Position numbers and translations under genes: made by a program
Source: a virus
Lineage: Duplodnaviria > Heunggongvirae > Uroviricota > Caudoviricetes
Virus record (IMG/VR): IMGVR_UViG_3300029516_000004
Location: 1-64,000 of that record
DNA length: 64,000 nucleotides
Direction: 5' to 3' (one strand)
Part shown: positions 30,229 to 43,307 of the stretch, piece by piece
Layout of the letters: every line of letters begins with the position of its first letter
Numbering within the stretch: the first letter of the stretch is position 1
The notes under the pieces: generated by a model
The model's input: only the letters and a program-made list of their open reading frames with translations
The model's database searches: none
Told to the model about the DNA's origin: nothing

Positions 30229-30510
30229 TTTTCCACCACGTTATCGCTTTTAGGTTATTGCATTTAATCTATCGCAATGGCAGAGTCCTGTCCGGGAACC
30301 TCGCGGGCTTCTCTGGAAAACATGCAGGCATGGTACATCCGAGATGAAACCTACTCTGCTGCCCTGGCGGAACTGGTTAAGTAGGTAATGGCCACGTCTT
30401 CGTAGTTGACTAACGCCACGGCTCAATTATAACAATCAATTAGAGCAATGTTATATTGTTTATCTTCAGTCACATTTTTTCACTTTAGTATCTATGTGCT
30501 ATACTCCTTT

Positions 30511-31970: not shown

Positions 31971-32296
31971 TTAACACTCAGATAATGGTTTTAAGTAAAG
32001 TGTACAGGATCGGCTCTGCCTTTACCTGTTTATGGTTCTCGTCATAGAAACGCCAGCGACCGCGCGTGCGTTCTATTTTCTCTTCACCGCGCGATAATGA
32101 CAGTTGGCAACTATCACGCTCAAACCCTTTTGCCCGCCAGTAACCACGGTTTTTCTCAAGCTCAAGATGAGTGGACACTTTAGCAGCTGAATATCCCATT
32201 TTTCACCTCTGATTGATTGGTGGTGCTAAGTGCGCTACGCGAAATCTGGAGCACTAACACTGCCAACATTTCGCAGATTTTACGTAGCGCAACCTT

Positions 32297-32369
32297 GATC
32301 AAATGATCAAGTGATCACTATTTGACCTGATAAGGTATTGAACTGTATGGATTTACAGGTAAATTGATC
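32297..32369. promoter_or_regulatory. GATC cluster in the cre promoter region
   Basis: Four GATC sites within 73 bp between loxP and cre. Confidence 0.5.
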
Positions 32370-35485: not shown

Positions 35486-36678
35486 TAATCATCATCCCCG
35501 TACAGTTTGCGGGTAACTTCTTCGTCTTCCTCCTCGTCTTCGTCCAGATCCTGTTCAAGCCATGCTTCGTTTGATATGCCTTCCGCATCGACATCACCAT
35601 AACCACCTGTATCGACGATATCGGCAATTTCTTCTCTACGATGCTCAATCCACAATGCGGCATCAGCGCGGCGGCTGGCGGCCCGTTCTCGCGCGATTTT
35701 ATCCAGATCTTCAAGTGATGGAGCGCCAGATGCTGTTTGGTTTTCCTCGTCATCGGTATTGGTCTTAGGAGCACGCAGATCGGCTTTGATTTGCTCCAGC
35801 ATCAGGGGCGGCACTTTCCCTCCATGCGCCTCGATGAATTCAGCTGCTTCCAGCACTGACCAGTTATTTTCACGCTTTCGTTCGTATGCCAGCTTAACAA
35901 TGCCAGCTTGCCCCATAGATAAAGCGTGCTTTTCCGCCTCCCGGCTTTCTTTTCGATAGTTATTCCGGATGCTGTAAATGGTGTTGATCAGGCTGCTTAT
36001 CTGCGCGGAACAGCTGTTTAGCATGCTCGCGATACGGTATTCAGGCGGAGTACCTTCATCATCGTCTTTTTGCTGATCGCGCATTTCCTGCACCAGGCGA
36101 ATACACGTATCCCTGGCGTTCTCCAGCATAAGGAGATGAGAAAGAGACTTTTCAAGAAGAGTGGTTTCCAGAACATCGGCCCCGGACCGACGCAACATAG
36201 CGCGCGCGGCCTTCCGTGCTTCAACGTTATCTATCAGGTAATCGCCAGCTTCGAATTCAAAGCGTTCACCATCATCATCCAGGGTGTCGCGTTCCAGGCG
36301 ATCACGTAAGGTACGGTGGGCGCGAGTGATCACGTCATGATCATCAGAACGATCATTTATGCGCTTATTTTGGCGCTTAGCGTTCTCGACTGCGGCACTG
36401 ACAACAGCATTAACTCTTTGTTTTTCAGCCATTTCAGCCACAATGTGATCACCTGCACGTTGATCATTAGCGTGATCAATGATCATGCTTTTTAGTGGTT
36501 TCCTGACAGGCTTATTTGGCTTACGACTGTCCGCTGTTCCGGTGTCTTCTTTGAATGCACGGAGATAACGACGTGCGGTGTTTGGGTTGAGATTAAACTC
36601 GGCGGCATATTGTGCGATGGTGTAACCACCATCTCGCGCCAGGCGAGCAAAATTCTTCTTGTGATCGTCCCAGGTCAC
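35485..36678 (-). CDS. pacA: Terminase small subunit PacA (contains pac site)
   Basis: 397 aa, GTG start after AGGAAG, acidic C-terminus; GATC clusters inside 5' part. Confidence 0.8.
36300..36484. other. pac packaging site (two GATC clusters)
   Basis: Four GATC at 36300-36354 and four at 36447-36484 inside pacA 5' region. Confidence 0.7.
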
Positions 36679-38560: not shown

Positions 38561-38941
38561 CTACTCCGCAGAACCATACAATCTACGTAACGTGTCGGCG
38601 ACAGAAGATACAGATATCTCGCCAGTCGCAGCGCCTACGGTAAGGTCTGCCAGTTCAGGTGAATCAAATACCTGCACCCCGTTACGGCGTAGAAATAGCA
38701 GCGCACTGTTTAGCGCGGTACGCTTATTGGCATCATTGAATATATGCCCTCTCGCTGTAGCCACCAGGTAGGTGGCGGAGACTTCGAAAAGGTCGGTGAT
38801 CTCTTCGTAGGCAACTCTGGCCTGAACTCTCCCGATAATGGCCTCTGCCCTACCCGGATCTGACATTCCCGGCAGGCCGCCGTAGCGGTTTATATTCGCA
38901 TCATGAAGCGCAATAAGTTCTTCCGGTGATATATGCCTCAT
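38561..38941 (-). CDS. doc: Doc toxin (Fic-fold)
   Basis: 126 aa with Fic-like motif ([19 protein letters not shown]); start overlaps phd stop. Confidence 0.9.
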
Positions 38942-39162
38942 TATCGGTTAACCAGTTCCTTGTTGGTGGAGTCCAGGGTGTCAAACAGGGATGCAAATTC
39001 AGCATCCAGCGCCGCTTTTTTGTAGGCTTCGAAAGTAGCCTTGCTGACAATTACTGCTGGCTCACGGCCTCTGCGGGTGATTTCAACCTCTTCCCCGGCC
39101 TCAACATTGTTGAGCACTTCAGAAAGGTTGCCGCGCGCGGTACGGAAGTTAATGGATTGCAT
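38941..39162 (-). CDS. phd: Phd antitoxin
   Basis: 73 aa, [39 protein letters not shown]. Confidence 0.9.
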
Positions 39163-39338: not shown

Positions 39339-40901
39339 ATGAAAATGACAAGTATTCAACAACGTGCAGAGCTTCATCGTCAAATCTGGCAAATTGCTAA
39401 CGATGTCAGGGGTTCGGTCGATGGATGGGATTTTAAGCAATACGTTCTGGGCGCACTTTTCTACCGTTTTATCAGCGAAAATTTTTCCAGCTATATTGAA
39501 GCCGGGGATGACAGTATCTGTTATGCGAAACTGGATGACAGCGTAATTACTGATGACATTAAAGACGATGCTATCAAAACTAAAGGCTACTTCATCTACC
39601 CCAGTCAGCTTTTCTGCAACGTAGCGGCGAAAGCAAATACCAATGACAGACTGAATGCAGATTTAAACAGCATCTTCGTTGCTATCGAAAGTTCTGCTTA
39701 CGGTTATCCTTCAGAAGCTGACATCAAAGGTTTGTTTGCTGATTTCGATACCACCAGTAACCGCCTGGGTAACACCGTTAAAGATAAAAATGCCCGCCTG
39801 GCTGCGGTTCTGAAAGGGGTTGAAGGGTTAAAACTTGGTGACTTCAACGAACATCAGATTGACCTGTTCGGTGATGCCTATGAGTTCCTGATCTCTAACT
39901 ATGCGGCAAATGCCGGTAAGTCAGGCGGCGAGTTCTTTACACCGCAGCACGTCTCTAAGCTGATTGCACAACTGGCTATGCACGGGCAGACCCACGTTAA
40001 CAAAATCTACGACCCGGCAGCAGGCTCCGGTTCGCTGTTGTTGCAGGCTAAAAAACAGTTTGATGACCATATCATCGAAGAAGGTTTTTTTGGTCAGGAA
40101 ATCAACCATACGACCTATAACCTGGCGCGTATGAACATGTTTTTGCACAACATCAACTACGACAAGTTTGATATCAAGCTGGGCAATACGCTGACTGAAC
40201 CGCACTTCAGAGATGAAAAACCGTTTGATGCCATCGTTTCTAACCCGCCGTATTCGGTGAAATGGATTGGCAGCGATGACCCGACGCTGATTAACGATGA
40301 ACGTTTTGCCCCGGCTGGCGTTCTGGCCCCCAAATCCAAAGCTGACTTTGCGTTTGTATTACATGCGCTGAACTATCTTTCTGCCAAAGGTCGTGCTGCG
40401 ATTGTTTGCTTCCCGGGTATTTTTTACCGTGGCGGTGCGGAGCAGAAAATCCGTCAGTATCTGGTCGACAATAACTATGTCGAAACCGTGATTTCACTGG
40501 CACCGAATCTGTTCTTTGGCACCACCATTGCCGTCAATATTCTGGTGCTGTCTAAACATAAAACCGATACCAAAGTTCAGTTTATTGACGCCAGCGAACT
40601 ATTCAAAAAAGAGACCAACAACAATATCCTGACCGATGCCCATATCGAACAGATTATGCAGGTATTTGCCAGCAAGGAAGATGTTGCTCATCTGGCGAAA
40701 TCAGTCGCGTTTGAGACCGTTGTTGCTAATGACTATAACCTGTCGGTGAGCAGCTATGTTGAAGCGAAAGATACTCGCGAAATTATCGATATCGCTGAGT
40801 TGAATGCAGAGCTGAAAACCACGGTCAGCAAAATCGACCAGTTGCGTAAAGATATTGATGCAATTGTGGCTGAAATTGAAGGCTGCGAGGTGCAGAAATG
40901 A
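39339..40901 (+). CDS. hsdM: Type I restriction-modification methyltransferase HsdM
   Basis: 520 aa; AdoMet motif [11 protein letters not shown], catalytic SNPPYSVKW. Confidence 0.9.
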
Positions 40902-42115
40902 GCGAGTTGAGTTATCTGGAAAAATTGATGGATGGGGTTGAAGTTGAGTGGTTGCCACTCTCAAAAGTATTCAACTTAAGGAATGGTTATACACCGTCTA
41001 AAACTAAAAAAGAATTTTGGGCGAATGGTGATATACCTTGGTTCAGAATGGATGACATACGTGAAAATGGTAGAATTCTAGGGAGTTCACTTCAAAAAAT
41101 TTCATCCTGCGCCGTAAAAGGGGGGAAACTATTTCCTGAAAATTCAATATTAATATCAACGTCGGCAACAATTGGTGAGCATGCTTTAATCACTGTACCT
41201 CATCTAGCCAATCAAAGGTTTACATGTTTGGCTTTAAAAGAGTCTTATGCTGATTGCTTTGATATTAAATTTTTATTTTACTACTGTTTTTCTTTAGCTG
41301 AGTGGTGCCGAAAAAACACAACGATGTCCAGTTTTGCGTCTGTTGATATGGATGGATTCAAAAAATTTTTAATCCCTCGCCCCTGCCCGGATAATCCGGA
41401 AAAATCCCTTGCCATCCAGTCTGAAATCGTGCGAATTCTGGACAAATTCAGCGCCCTTACTGCAGAGCTTACTGCAGAGCTTACTGCAGAGCTTAGCATG
41501 CGTAAAAAACAATACAACTACTATCGCGACCAGTTGTTGAGTTTTAAAGAGGATGAGGTTGAGGGTAAGAGGAAAACCTTAGGGGAAATTATGAAGATGC
41601 GTGCCGGACAACATATTTCGGCTCATAATATAATTGAAAGAAAAGAAGAGAGTTATATATATCCTTGTTTTGGAGGAAATGGCATACGGGGTTACGTCAA
41701 AGAAAAAAGTCATGATGGAGAACATCTATTAATAGGGCGACAAGGAGCATTGTGTGGTAATGTTCAAAGAATGAAAGGCCAGTTCTATGCTACAGAACAT
41801 GCTGTTGTAGTTTCAGTCATGCCCGGGATTAACATTGACTGGGCATTTCATATGTTAACGGCAATGAATCTAAACCAATATGCTTCAAAATCGGCACAAC
41901 CGGGACTTGCTGTAGGGAAATTACAGGAATTGAAATTATTTGTCCCTTCAATAGAGAGACAAATATATATTGCCGCAATACTCGATAAATTCGACACTCT
42001 GACCAACTCCATCACCGAAGGTCTCCCGCGTGAAATCGAGTTACGCCAGAAACAGTACGAATATTATCGAGATATGCTATTTAGTTTCCTGAAGCCGGAA
42101 GTAGCAGAGGCATGA
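40898..42115 (+). CDS. hsdS: Type IC specificity subunit HsdS
   Basis: Two AT-rich variable domains separated by conserved central region with three TAEL repeats; conserved C-terminal [20 protein letters not shown]. Confidence 0.85.
41456..41491 (+). repeat. 3 x 12-bp in-frame tandem repeat (cttactgcagag) in hsdS central region
   Basis: Encodes [13 protein letters not shown]. Confidence 0.8.
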
Positions 42116-42116
42116 C

Positions 42117-43307
42117 ATGGGCAAGACACTCTCGGAAATAGCTCAACAGCTTAGTACGCCTCAGAAAGTCAAGAAGACTGTCCATAAAGAAGTTGAAGCG
42201 ACCAGGGCCGTGCCAAAGGTGCAGTTAATCTACGCTTTCAATGGCACGGGGAAAACGCGTCTTTCCCGGGATTTCAAGCAACTGCTTGAGTCCAAAGTTC
42301 ATGACGGAGAAGGTGAAGACGAAGCTGAACAGTCCGCGTTGTCGCGCAAAAAAATCCTCTATTATAATGCCTTCACCGAGGACTTGTTCTATTGGGATAA
42401 CGATCTGCAAGAAGACGCAGAACCGAAGCTGAAGGTGCAGCCTAACTCCTATACAAACTGGTTGCTGACCTTGCTAAAAGATTTGGGACAGGATAGCAAT
42501 ATCGTCCGTTATTTCCAGCGCTATGCGAACGACAAGCTAACGCCACACTTCAATCCAGATTTTACCGAAATCACTTTTTCCATGGAGCGCGGTAACGATG
42601 AGCGTTCCGCCCACATCAAGTTATCCAAAGGTGAAGAGAGCAACTTCATCTGGAGTGTGTTTTACACCCTACTGGATCAAGTGGTAACAATTCTCAATGT
42701 CGCTGACCCGGATGCGCGCGAGACCCACGCATTTGATCAACTGAAATATGTATTCATTGATGATCCCGTTAGCTCCCTTGATGATAACCACTTGATTGAA
42801 CTGGCGGTTGATCTTGCAGGGCTGATCAAATCCAGCGAATCCGATTTGAAGTTCATTATCACGACACATAGTCCAATATTTTATAATGTACTTTTCAATG
42901 AGTTGAACGGTAAAGTTTGCTACATGTTGGAAAGTTTTGAGGATGGTACATTTGCCCTCACAGAAAAATATGGCGACTCTAACAAGAGTTTTTCCTACCA
43001 TCTCCACCTAAAGCAAACAATCGAACAGGCAATTGCTGACAACAACGTTGAAAGATATCATTTCACGTTACTGCGCAATCTTTATGAGAAAACGGCCAGC
43101 TTTCTGGGCTACCCTAAATGGTCTGAACTCTTGCCTGACGACAAGCAGCTTTATCTGAGCAGAATCATCAATTTCACAAGCCACAGCACGCTATCGAATG
43201 AGGCCGTTGCAGAGCCAACGCCAGCGGAGAAAGCGACTGTCAAACTGTTGCTCGATCACTTGAAGAACAACTGTGGCTTCTGGCAGCAGGAACAAAAAAA
43301 TGGTTGA
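42117..43307 (+). CDS. prrC: PrrC anticodon nuclease
   Basis: 396 aa; N-terminal P-loop FNGTGKT; C-terminal R320-x3-E324 ... H356 spacing (LLRNLYEKT...NFTSHSTLS); embedded between hsdS and hsdR as in the prr locus. Confidence 0.9.

Follow-up and report, generated by a model that had tools for sequence, protein, structure and literature searches.

A three-unit TAEL array in a type IC HsdS subunit of a P1-like phage-plasmid and its natural two-unit counterparts

Introduction

The closest described relatives of the restriction-modification (R-M) locus reported here are the type IC enzymes of the EcoR124 family. The central conserved helix D1 of their specificity subunit HsdS is encoded by DNA that contains a 12-bp sequence twice in EcoR124I, which recognizes GAA N6 RTCG, and three times in EcoR124II, which recognizes GAA N7 RTCG (PMC3874165). 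An additional copy of the encoded peptide, TAEL, shifts the two target-recognition domains away from each other by 0.34 nm and turns them through 36 degrees (PMC3874165). Three TAEL units and an N7 gap are likewise found together in EcoDXXI (TCA N7 RTTC) and EcoprrI (CCA N7 RTGC), and in four engineered EcoR124/EcoDXXI hybrids with either two or three repeats the gap changed exactly as predicted (PMC3874165). Between the methylated positions, the interval amounts to 7 in EcoR124I and to 8 in both EcoDXXI and EcoprrI (PMC3874165). In the published systems the two-unit and three-unit enzymes are both fully active and have different specificities, three units being the apparent optimum, and the change in copy number has been ascribed to unequal crossing-over at the repeat (PMC3874165).

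A similar behavior has been described for NgoAV, in which one LEAT repeat corresponds to GAC N6 TGC and two repeats correspond to GAC N7 TGC in SMRT methylomes (PMC6789123). As for the carriers of such systems, PrrC/type I R-M already figures in a recent preprint as part of the defence cargo carried by P1-like phage-plasmids.

Here, we describe an hsdS gene with a TAEL array that is located in a 64,000-nucleotide stretch of a Caudoviricetes virus record (IMG/VR IMGVR_UViG_3300029516_000004). The whole of this stretch is called the window throughout the text.

Results

The operon and its genomic setting

The hsdS gene belongs to an operon of four genes, hsdM-hsdS-prrC-hsdR, in which the stop codon of hsdM overlaps the start of hsdS (Table 1). 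All four genes are full-length and their domain coverage is complete. HsdM matches N6_Mtase (2.5e-121), HsdM_N and the TIGR00497 hsdM family (1.8e-195). HsdS matches the Pfam family Methylase_S in two stretches (1.8e-43) and the PADLOC profile Specificity_I (6.3e-159). HsdR, the longest open reading frame of which begins with a GTG codon at position 43273, contains HSDR_N (1e-50), SWI2_SNF2, T1R_D3-like (4.7e-59) and the family-specific C-terminal domain EcoR124_C (1.1e-71), and it matches TIGR00348 with an E-value of 5.5e-223.

The product of the third gene is identified by the PADLOC profile PrrC (6.1e-148), and its counterpart in CP057689 is annotated as 'anticodon nuclease'. In a more careful comparison with the E. 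coli protein, the 49 residues that a mutagenesis study of EcoPrrC names (PMC3025547) were all found at identical numbered positions in the window PrrC. It has the NTPase motifs, the triad Arg320/Glu324/His356 and a LARP motif, and the motif numbered 225, KFIITTH(251), LSKGE(173) and the LARP peptide(294) are identical to those of E. coli PrrC. A single residue of the 'PrrC box' differs, as the window protein has T87 where the text of PMC3025547 has Y. Since prrC lies between hsdS and hsdR, PrrC matches its E. coli counterpart at these residues and HsdR carries the EcoR124_C domain, the locus is of the prr type, in which the gene for an anticodon nuclease is embedded in a type IC R-M operon.

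The genes phd/doc, pdcA, lpa and pacA/B are located upstream of the operon, and pap, pmgS, pmgR and pmgQ downstream of it, all of them being about 98% identical to those of phage P1. Judging by this neighbourhood, the window derives from a P1-like phage-plasmid, in which the operon sits between phd/doc and pap. We also considered whether pap, the product of which is a phosphatase of the PNKP type, might form a tRNA-repair module linked to prrC together with the downstream gene of 420 aa. This candidate was rejected because the two genes, pap and pmgS, belong to the ordinary core of P1.

Table 1. Positions of the four genes, the HsdS domains and helices, and the repeat array in the window.
Feature	Coordinates	Strand	Evidence
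hsdM (prrA-like), methyltransferase subunit; relatives annotated from 39345 (518 aa)	39339..40901	+	N6_Mtase, HsdM_N, TIGR00497, annotation of relatives
hsdS, type IC specificity subunit, 405 aa, two target-recognition domains	40898..42115	+	Pfam, PADLOC, PDB match, AF2/Foldseek
N-terminal target-recognition domain, ~residues 16-162	40943..41383	+	beta-rich globular in AF2 model; variable vs EcoR124 HsdS
Central conserved helix D1, residues 167-214, holds the TAEL array	41396..41539	+	AF2 helix; ~90% identical to EcoR124 HsdS central region
TAEL array, L187-(TAEL)3	41456..41495	+	raw sequence, Tandem Repeats Finder, ORF translation
C-terminal target-recognition domain, ~residues 228-343	41579..41926	+	AF2 secondary structure; variable vs EcoR124 HsdS
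C-terminal conserved helix D2, residues 352-395, without repeat, predicted antiparallel partner of D1	41951..42082	+	AF2 helix; near-identical to EcoR124 HsdS C-terminus
prrC, tRNA-Lys anticodon nuclease gene, 396 aa, between hsdS and hsdR	42117..43307	+	PADLOC PrrC; residue match; annotation
hsdR (prrD-like), type IC restriction/translocase subunit, 1039 aa as annotated in relatives	43300..46419	+	Pfam, TIGR00348, annotation of relatives

Architecture of HsdS and position of the repeat

The closest solved relative of the window HsdS is the specificity subunit of EcoR124 (PDB code 7bst_A; 2.3e-72 in a phmmer search against the PDB). The N-terminal 26 residues and the central and C-terminal conserved regions of the two proteins are near-identical (the conserved stretches are 119-236 and 310-402), whereas both target-recognition domains are divergent. 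The alignment of the central conserved region contains a single gap of four residues, which falls exactly at the TAEL array. Most of the E. coli relatives share only one half with the window HsdS, either the N-terminal or the C-terminal recognition domain.

In the AlphaFold2 (AF2) model of HsdS, which was calculated with 30 homologues in the input and has a mean pLDDT of 83.9, residues 188-199 lie within one unbroken helix that spans residues 167-214. A second long helix is formed by residues 352-395, and the model contains two beta-rich domains in addition to these helices. The top Foldseek matches of the model are all HsdS structures (1yf2, 1ydx, 7bst_A, 2y7c and 5ybb). As modelled, the window HsdS is built like other type I S subunits, with D1 and D2 forming an antiparallel coiled coil.

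The array itself was reported by Tandem Repeats Finder as 3.3 copies of the 12-bp unit CTTACTGCAGAG with a period of 12, 100% matches and a score of 80, and each of the six other arrays in the window has a score of at most 40. In the raw sequence, three copies of CTTACTGCAGAG are followed by CTTA, and a PstI site (CTGCAG) is present in every unit. Its units are read in frame as part of hsdS, which has 405 codons. In the TAEL phase, the three units are residues 188-199 (nucleotides 41459-41494), with the DNA periodicity extending to position 41495, and the interval 41456-41491, by which the repeat had originally been located, represents three units in the LTAE phase. We calculate that about 64000 x 4^-24, or some 2e-10, perfect tandems of 3 x 12 nt are to be expected in a stretch of 64 kb, and the TAEL array is therefore no chance match.

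These findings are in agreement with most of what had been proposed in a preliminary description of this DNA. It had claimed a perfect in-frame 3 x 12-bp TAEL repeat in the spacer region of HsdS, and the raw sequence, Tandem Repeats Finder and the translation of the reading frame all bear this out. Its assignment of the enzyme to the EcoR124 family (type IC) is upheld by the EcoR124_C domain of HsdR and by the match of HsdS to 7bst_A. The locus contains hsdM, hsdS and hsdR; the two recognition domains of HsdS are variable, its central and C-terminal conserved regions are homologous to those of EcoR124 HsdS, and the repeat that encodes TAEL lies within D1. The further statement that the copy number sets the spacer length in this family corresponds to the published rule, in which two TAEL units specify N6 and three specify N7 (PMC3874165).

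Predicted target spacing

With three units, the window enzyme should methylate adenines that are 8 nt apart, and its target should contain an N7 gap if the half-sites are 3 and 4 nt long. The N7 gap is a sound prediction from the family rule, and the effect of the copy number on the gap in this particular allele would follow from the literature on its relatives. The written gap depends also on the half-site lengths of both recognition domains.

The mechanism that we propose is as follows. The three TAEL units lie within D1, which would pair with D2 in an antiparallel fashion and thus keep the two target-recognition domains apart. Each added unit of four residues, or about one helical turn, would move the domains about 1 bp further apart and rotate them by about 36 degrees. 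A two-unit form would then have the same half-sites and an N6 gap. Furthermore, the 40-nt perfect DNA repeat would sometimes lose or gain a unit, via either replication slippage or unequal crossing-over, and the phage-plasmid would thereby split into sister lineages that differ heritably in their specificity of restriction and modification. With only three units, this would be a rare heritable change and not fast phase variation. Taken as a whole, and including the change of specificity upon loss or gain of a unit, this ruler model is in our opinion likely to be correct for the window HsdS.

Natural three-copy and two-copy forms of the window allele

Related hsdS genes are present in 1,272 of the 5,426 complete E. 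coli genomes, and a full-length match was found in only one of them, that of strain NCCP 15734. Its hsdS is 1,206 nt long as compared to 1,218 nt in the window, with exactly one 12-bp unit missing and no other difference in the aligned stretch. Plasmid pRHB17-C14_2 (CP057689) carries a three-copy hsdS with 99.7% identity. In a large protein collection, we found two proteins of the two-copy type, one of which (P0001) is the window protein minus one TAEL and the other (P0002) is P0001 with the additional substitution L394P. The three-copy protein is encoded by contigs, mostly P1-like ones of 50-200 kb, in 79 blocks of the assembly index. For P0001 the number of blocks is 28, and P0002 is encoded by 10 contigs. 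The context phd/doc-hsdM-hsdS-prrC-hsdR is common to all three-copy, P0001 and P0002 loci.

Many of the two-copy contigs are short and come from automated short-read assemblies (the contigs are 5-10 kb long in 16 of the 28 blocks), such that the two-copy variants could in principle represent a sequencing or assembly artefact, in which a short tandem repeat has been collapsed. However, a finished chromosome (NZ_CP097001.1) has the two-copy form, as does an independent assembly from NCBI (GCA_053667825.1, locus L013), and P0002 carries a linked second change. Also, by our own inference, at k = 31 the 40-nt array is shorter than the sum of k and the period, and hence no k-mer recurs in it that could be collapsed by a de Bruijn assembler. 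We consider an artefact to be scarcely credible.

An alignment of 5.8 kb of the operon covered 18 loci and the window. Three haplotypes contain both forms. In haplotype A, the window and loci L003 and L011 have three copies and L013 has two, with no SNPs between them. In haplotype B, three copies (L007, L009 and L010) and two copies (L001, L012 and L015) are again separated by no SNPs, and in haplotype C the three-copy locus L002 and the two-copy locus L017 differ by two SNPs. The haplotypes mutually differ by 13-30 SNPs, and the more distant three-copy locus L005 differs from them by 52-70 SNPs. The presence of three copies on all these backgrounds, L005 included, makes three copies the likely ancestral state of the window allele and the two-copy forms the derived one.

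Our first reading of these data was that at least three independent slippage events had taken place. It had to be downgraded upon inspection of the markers that flank the repeat. The marker-free interval extends over positions 40439-42791 in haplotypes A and B and over positions 39719-42043 in haplotype C. As about 2.3 kb around the repeat is thus devoid of markers, one contraction followed by gene conversion with a tract of up to 2.3 kb could mimic three independent events, which leaves room for short-tract recombination. The proposal of the preliminary description that the array is switchable is supported by the three-copy and two-copy forms of otherwise identical operons, while independent slippage as their cause is indistinguishable from short-tract recombination, and the literature names unequal crossing-over.

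The exact 405-aa three-copy protein has been kept across operons that differ by 22-70 SNPs, or up to about 1%, and it is present in 79 blocks, so the array is stable over long periods. Other copy numbers of this allele were looked for and none was found. Constructed HsdS proteins with one, four or five copies had no exact match in the protein collection, in a look-up that also missed the real three-copy protein in spite of its presence in 79 blocks. Neither pattern scans of the viral contigs in IMG/VR for one to four copies between the flanks of the allele nor those of the JGI metagenomes for a gap of 36-60 nt (three to five copies) gave any match, the allele itself being absent from each of these two collections. 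A 43-nt match in an Enterococcus plasmid was rejected as a four-copy variant because it belongs to a different S gene, which has three TAEL units in its C-terminal helix.

Behavior of the array across the family

Copy-number twins are not limited to the window allele. Among the 120 best homologue representatives, six other alleles comprise proteins that are identical or one residue apart except for the number of units, which is one, two or three. Four of these pairs have two units versus one (P0005/P0008, P0020/P0028, P0068/P0110 and P0043/P0064), and the other two have three versus two (P0059/P0093 and P0070/P0102). At the DNA level, the units are all identical within each array and the spelling differs between alleles: CTTACTGCAGAG in the window and L020, CTGACAGCAGAG in L021, CTTACCGCTGAG in L022, and CTTACAGCAGAG in L023 and L024. 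Such a combination of identity within arrays and differences between alleles is what continual loss and re-duplication of units should produce, and not what should result from selection on the peptide alone.

The window spelling is rare: with three or more copies, it was found in a single record among the complete E. coli genomes and in two plasmids of PLSDB. For three other spellings, 444, 122 and 39 complete E. coli genomes have arrays with three or more perfect units, and three copies are thus an ordinary state, which is consistent with the 'apparent optimum' of the literature (PMC3874165). The opposite conclusion, that three copies are rare, could be drawn from the 120 best homologue representatives (109 with two units, five with one and four with three), but we rejected it as biased in view of these DNA counts.

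A four-unit probe detected eight loci with longer arrays, which have five units (L025, L028, L029, L030, L032 and L033) or eight units (L026 and L031). Decay of the R-M locus is seen in every one of them: either hsdM is truncated beside IS2/IS3, or hsdS is split by IS1. This is a small sample, which probably represents two or three lineages. The occurrence of long arrays in decayed loci fits an intrinsically unstable array that would be kept at two or three units, and occasionally one, by selection for as long as the enzyme is used.

The same long arrays could be taken as a sign that the repeat is a relic of a type IC ancestor in a system that is inactive, or in which the copy number has no effect on specificity, as it is in decayed loci that five and eight units do accumulate. 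The window locus itself does not have this appearance. Each of its four genes has its full length and is completely covered by the expected domains, the catalytic and NTPase residues of PrrC are all intact, and HsdS is exactly conserved across diverged operons. Furthermore, the rule of two units for N6 and three for N7 is obeyed by every type IC combination of recognition domains that has been tested (PMC3874165). An inactive system or an inconsequential repeat is therefore very unlikely.

An explanation that deserves more weight is that the array is a fixed structural element, in which three TAEL units are the selected helix length of this allele. The two-copy forms would then be rare mutants, either neutral or slightly harmful, which have been spread by clonal growth or recombination, and no meaningful switching would take place. 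The identity of the 405-aa protein on operons 22-70 SNPs apart, the wider distribution of the three-copy form (79 blocks as compared to 28 blocks and 10 contigs), the abundance of arrays with at least three perfect units in E. coli, the apparent optimum of three units (PMC3874165) and the conversion tracts of up to 2.3 kb permitted by the flanking markers all point in this direction. On the other hand, the two-copy forms occur on three SNP backgrounds at a distance of zero to two SNPs from their three-copy counterparts, the published two-unit and three-unit enzymes are fully active with different specificities (PMC3874165), twins recur in six other alleles, and the units are homogenised within arrays. 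We find a fixed element doubtful as a full account and possible as a matter of degree, the recurrent copy-number twins arguing that the change is not negligible. The preferred reading remains that of a ruler whose length changes rarely and heritably.

Discussion

The mechanism discussed here is textbook knowledge, and in principle little is added to it. The novelty may be limited to the pair of recognition domains, if the enzyme is not EcoprrI, and to the coexistence of three and two copies on identical P1-like phage-plasmid backgrounds. The arrays of five to eight units in E. coli are beyond anything that has been characterised.

What makes the locus useful is that public assemblies hold natural pairs of P1-like phage-plasmids with three and two copies and zero SNPs across the operon, which amounts to a ready isogenic experiment. 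Such pairs could confirm the ruler of one helical turn per base pair for an uncharacterised pair of recognition domains. They could also show how often a phage-borne R-M system changes its specificity, and whether sibling phage-plasmids restrict one another. For annotation, the consequence is that HsdS proteins that are 99% identical can differ in their target.

A more speculative extension, which we put forward tentatively, is that the TAEL number in this P1-like phage-plasmid lineage toggles repeatedly in nature. Siblings would then keep yielding mutually restricting N7 and N6 variants of a module that combines restriction with abortive infection (PrrC), and the array would act as a slow bet-hedging switch on a temperate phage. 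The arrays of five to eight units might reflect a strong expansion bias, which selection normally holds at two to three units.

Comparison with known systems

A comparison can be made with phasevarion hsdS genes that contain simple-sequence repeats (PMC7383803). In these genes, a change in repeat number likewise alters the behavior of the methyltransferase, but the repeats are long tracts of 1-7-nt units, which shift the frame at high frequency. In the window, the unit is 12 nt long, there are 3.3 copies of it (three complete ones), and every copy number is in frame, for which reasons we rejected classic phase variation by simple-sequence repeats for this array. A change of its length is expected to be rare and to affect specificity, as opposed to switching the enzyme on or off.

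In NgoAV of Neisseria gonorrhoeae (PMC6789123), the HsdS subunit, also of type IC, has a repeat of four residues in its central helix, and natural differences in this repeat between strains change the methylated motif from N6 to N7, as is predicted for the window allele. The repeat sequence, the range of copies (0-3) and the organism are different, and NgoAV also has a homopolymer frameshift switch. EcoDXXI and its hybrids with EcoR124 (Gubler et al. 1992, via PMC3874165) have in common with the window the three TAEL units, associated there with N7, and they show that the gap follows the copy number independently of the recognition domains. Their recognition domains differ from those of the window, and their copy number was altered by engineering and not in nature.

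EcoR124I and EcoR124II of plasmid R124 (Price et al. 1987, 1989, via PMC3874165) match the window in the type of operon, the C-terminal domain of HsdR and the conserved regions of HsdS. The TAEL unit, its place in D1 and the natural alternatives of two and three copies are all as in the window allele. However, both recognition domains of the window HsdS differ from those of EcoR124, so its half-sites are not GAA and RTCG. The DNA spelling of the unit is specific to the allele, the carrier is a P1-like phage-plasmid, and prrC is inserted between hsdS and hsdR.

In this last respect, the window operon is the same as that of EcoprrI (prrA-prrB-prrC-prrD; CCA N7 RTGC; Tyndall et al. 1994, via PMC3874165), which is likewise of type IC and has its prrC between hsdS and hsdR. 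The 396-aa PrrC of EcoprrI is matched by the window protein in its 49 functional residues and LARP motif, and the published HsdS likewise has three TAEL units and N7. In a P1-like sister plasmid (NZ_CP061756), PrrC is 399 aa long and a recognition domain differs. In summary, the window enzyme, which is matched to prr through its PrrC and not through its recognition domains, may be EcoprrI itself or a sister allele of it.

Expanded TAEL arrays and decay of the restriction-modification system

The enzymes covered by a review of type I systems have 2-3 TAEL units (PMC3874165), and a number of E. coli hsdS genes carry arrays well above this range. Five perfect units are present at six loci from other genomes (L025, L028, L029, L030, L032 and L033) and eight at two more (L026 and L031). 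In all eight of these retrieved loci, the restriction-modification (R-M) system has decayed: either hsdM is truncated beside IS2/IS3, or hsdS is split by IS1. This suggests that the TAEL array expands under relaxed selection.

The search for relatives is subject to one caveat. The exact 405-aa HsdS was absent according to the exact collection look-up, yet it is encoded on contigs in 79 blocks. Hence, negative exact look-ups cannot be trusted for this locus.

At the DNA level, a PstI site (CTGCAG) lies in every 12-bp unit of the window's array, so that three such sites follow one another at 12-bp intervals, and the copy number should therefore be readable by a PstI digest or by simple amplicon sizing. 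On the opposite strand, the repeat is overlapped by a bare reading frame with a TTG start. Six further short tandem repeats also occur in the window (table).

Further features of the window around the repeat and the R-M/prrC cassette
Feature	Position	Strand
Six further short tandem repeats, score 40 or less (Tandem Repeats Finder)	30240-30449, 32296-32317, 35519-35544, 36355-36440	
phd/doc, P1 addiction module, one flank of the cassette	38561-39162	-
78-codon reading frame	41281-41517	-
Three PstI sites	41460-41489	
prrC, anticodon-nuclease gene, 396 aa	42117-43307	+
pap (HAD_PNKP phosphatase domain) and pmgS, P1 core genes, other flank	46684-48525	-

Class and surroundings of the locus

The window's PrrC is co-linear with E. 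coli PrrC, with which it shares 49/49 published functional residues and an identical LARP motif; in the quoted PrrC box the two proteins differ at a single residue (T87 versus Y). Together with the embedding of prrC between hsdS and hsdR, this match identifies the locus as a classical prr (EcoprrI-type) module, which would combine restriction with abortive infection. The cassette seems to stand in place of genes that P1 carries at this position. A functional tRNA-repair pairing of pap with prrC was considered and rejected; their adjacency looks instead like a result of the cassette's insertion site.

Comparison with related systems

An unannotated S-subunit ORF of Enterococcus faecalis 'plasmid 2' (LR961926.1; about 1917-1959 of the retrieved locus L019) also has three TAEL units with an almost identical DNA unit, but they are located in the C-terminal (D2) helix and not in the central one. 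The IncY P1-like plasmid of E. coli O18ac:H14 (NZ_CP061756.1) is a sister phage-plasmid of the window. It has the same operon and a three-unit array of identical DNA spelling, and one recognition domain is common to both, whereas its second recognition domain is different (HsdS of 407 aa) and its PrrC is 399 aa long. This pair is a case of domain shuffling, which operates alongside copy-number change.
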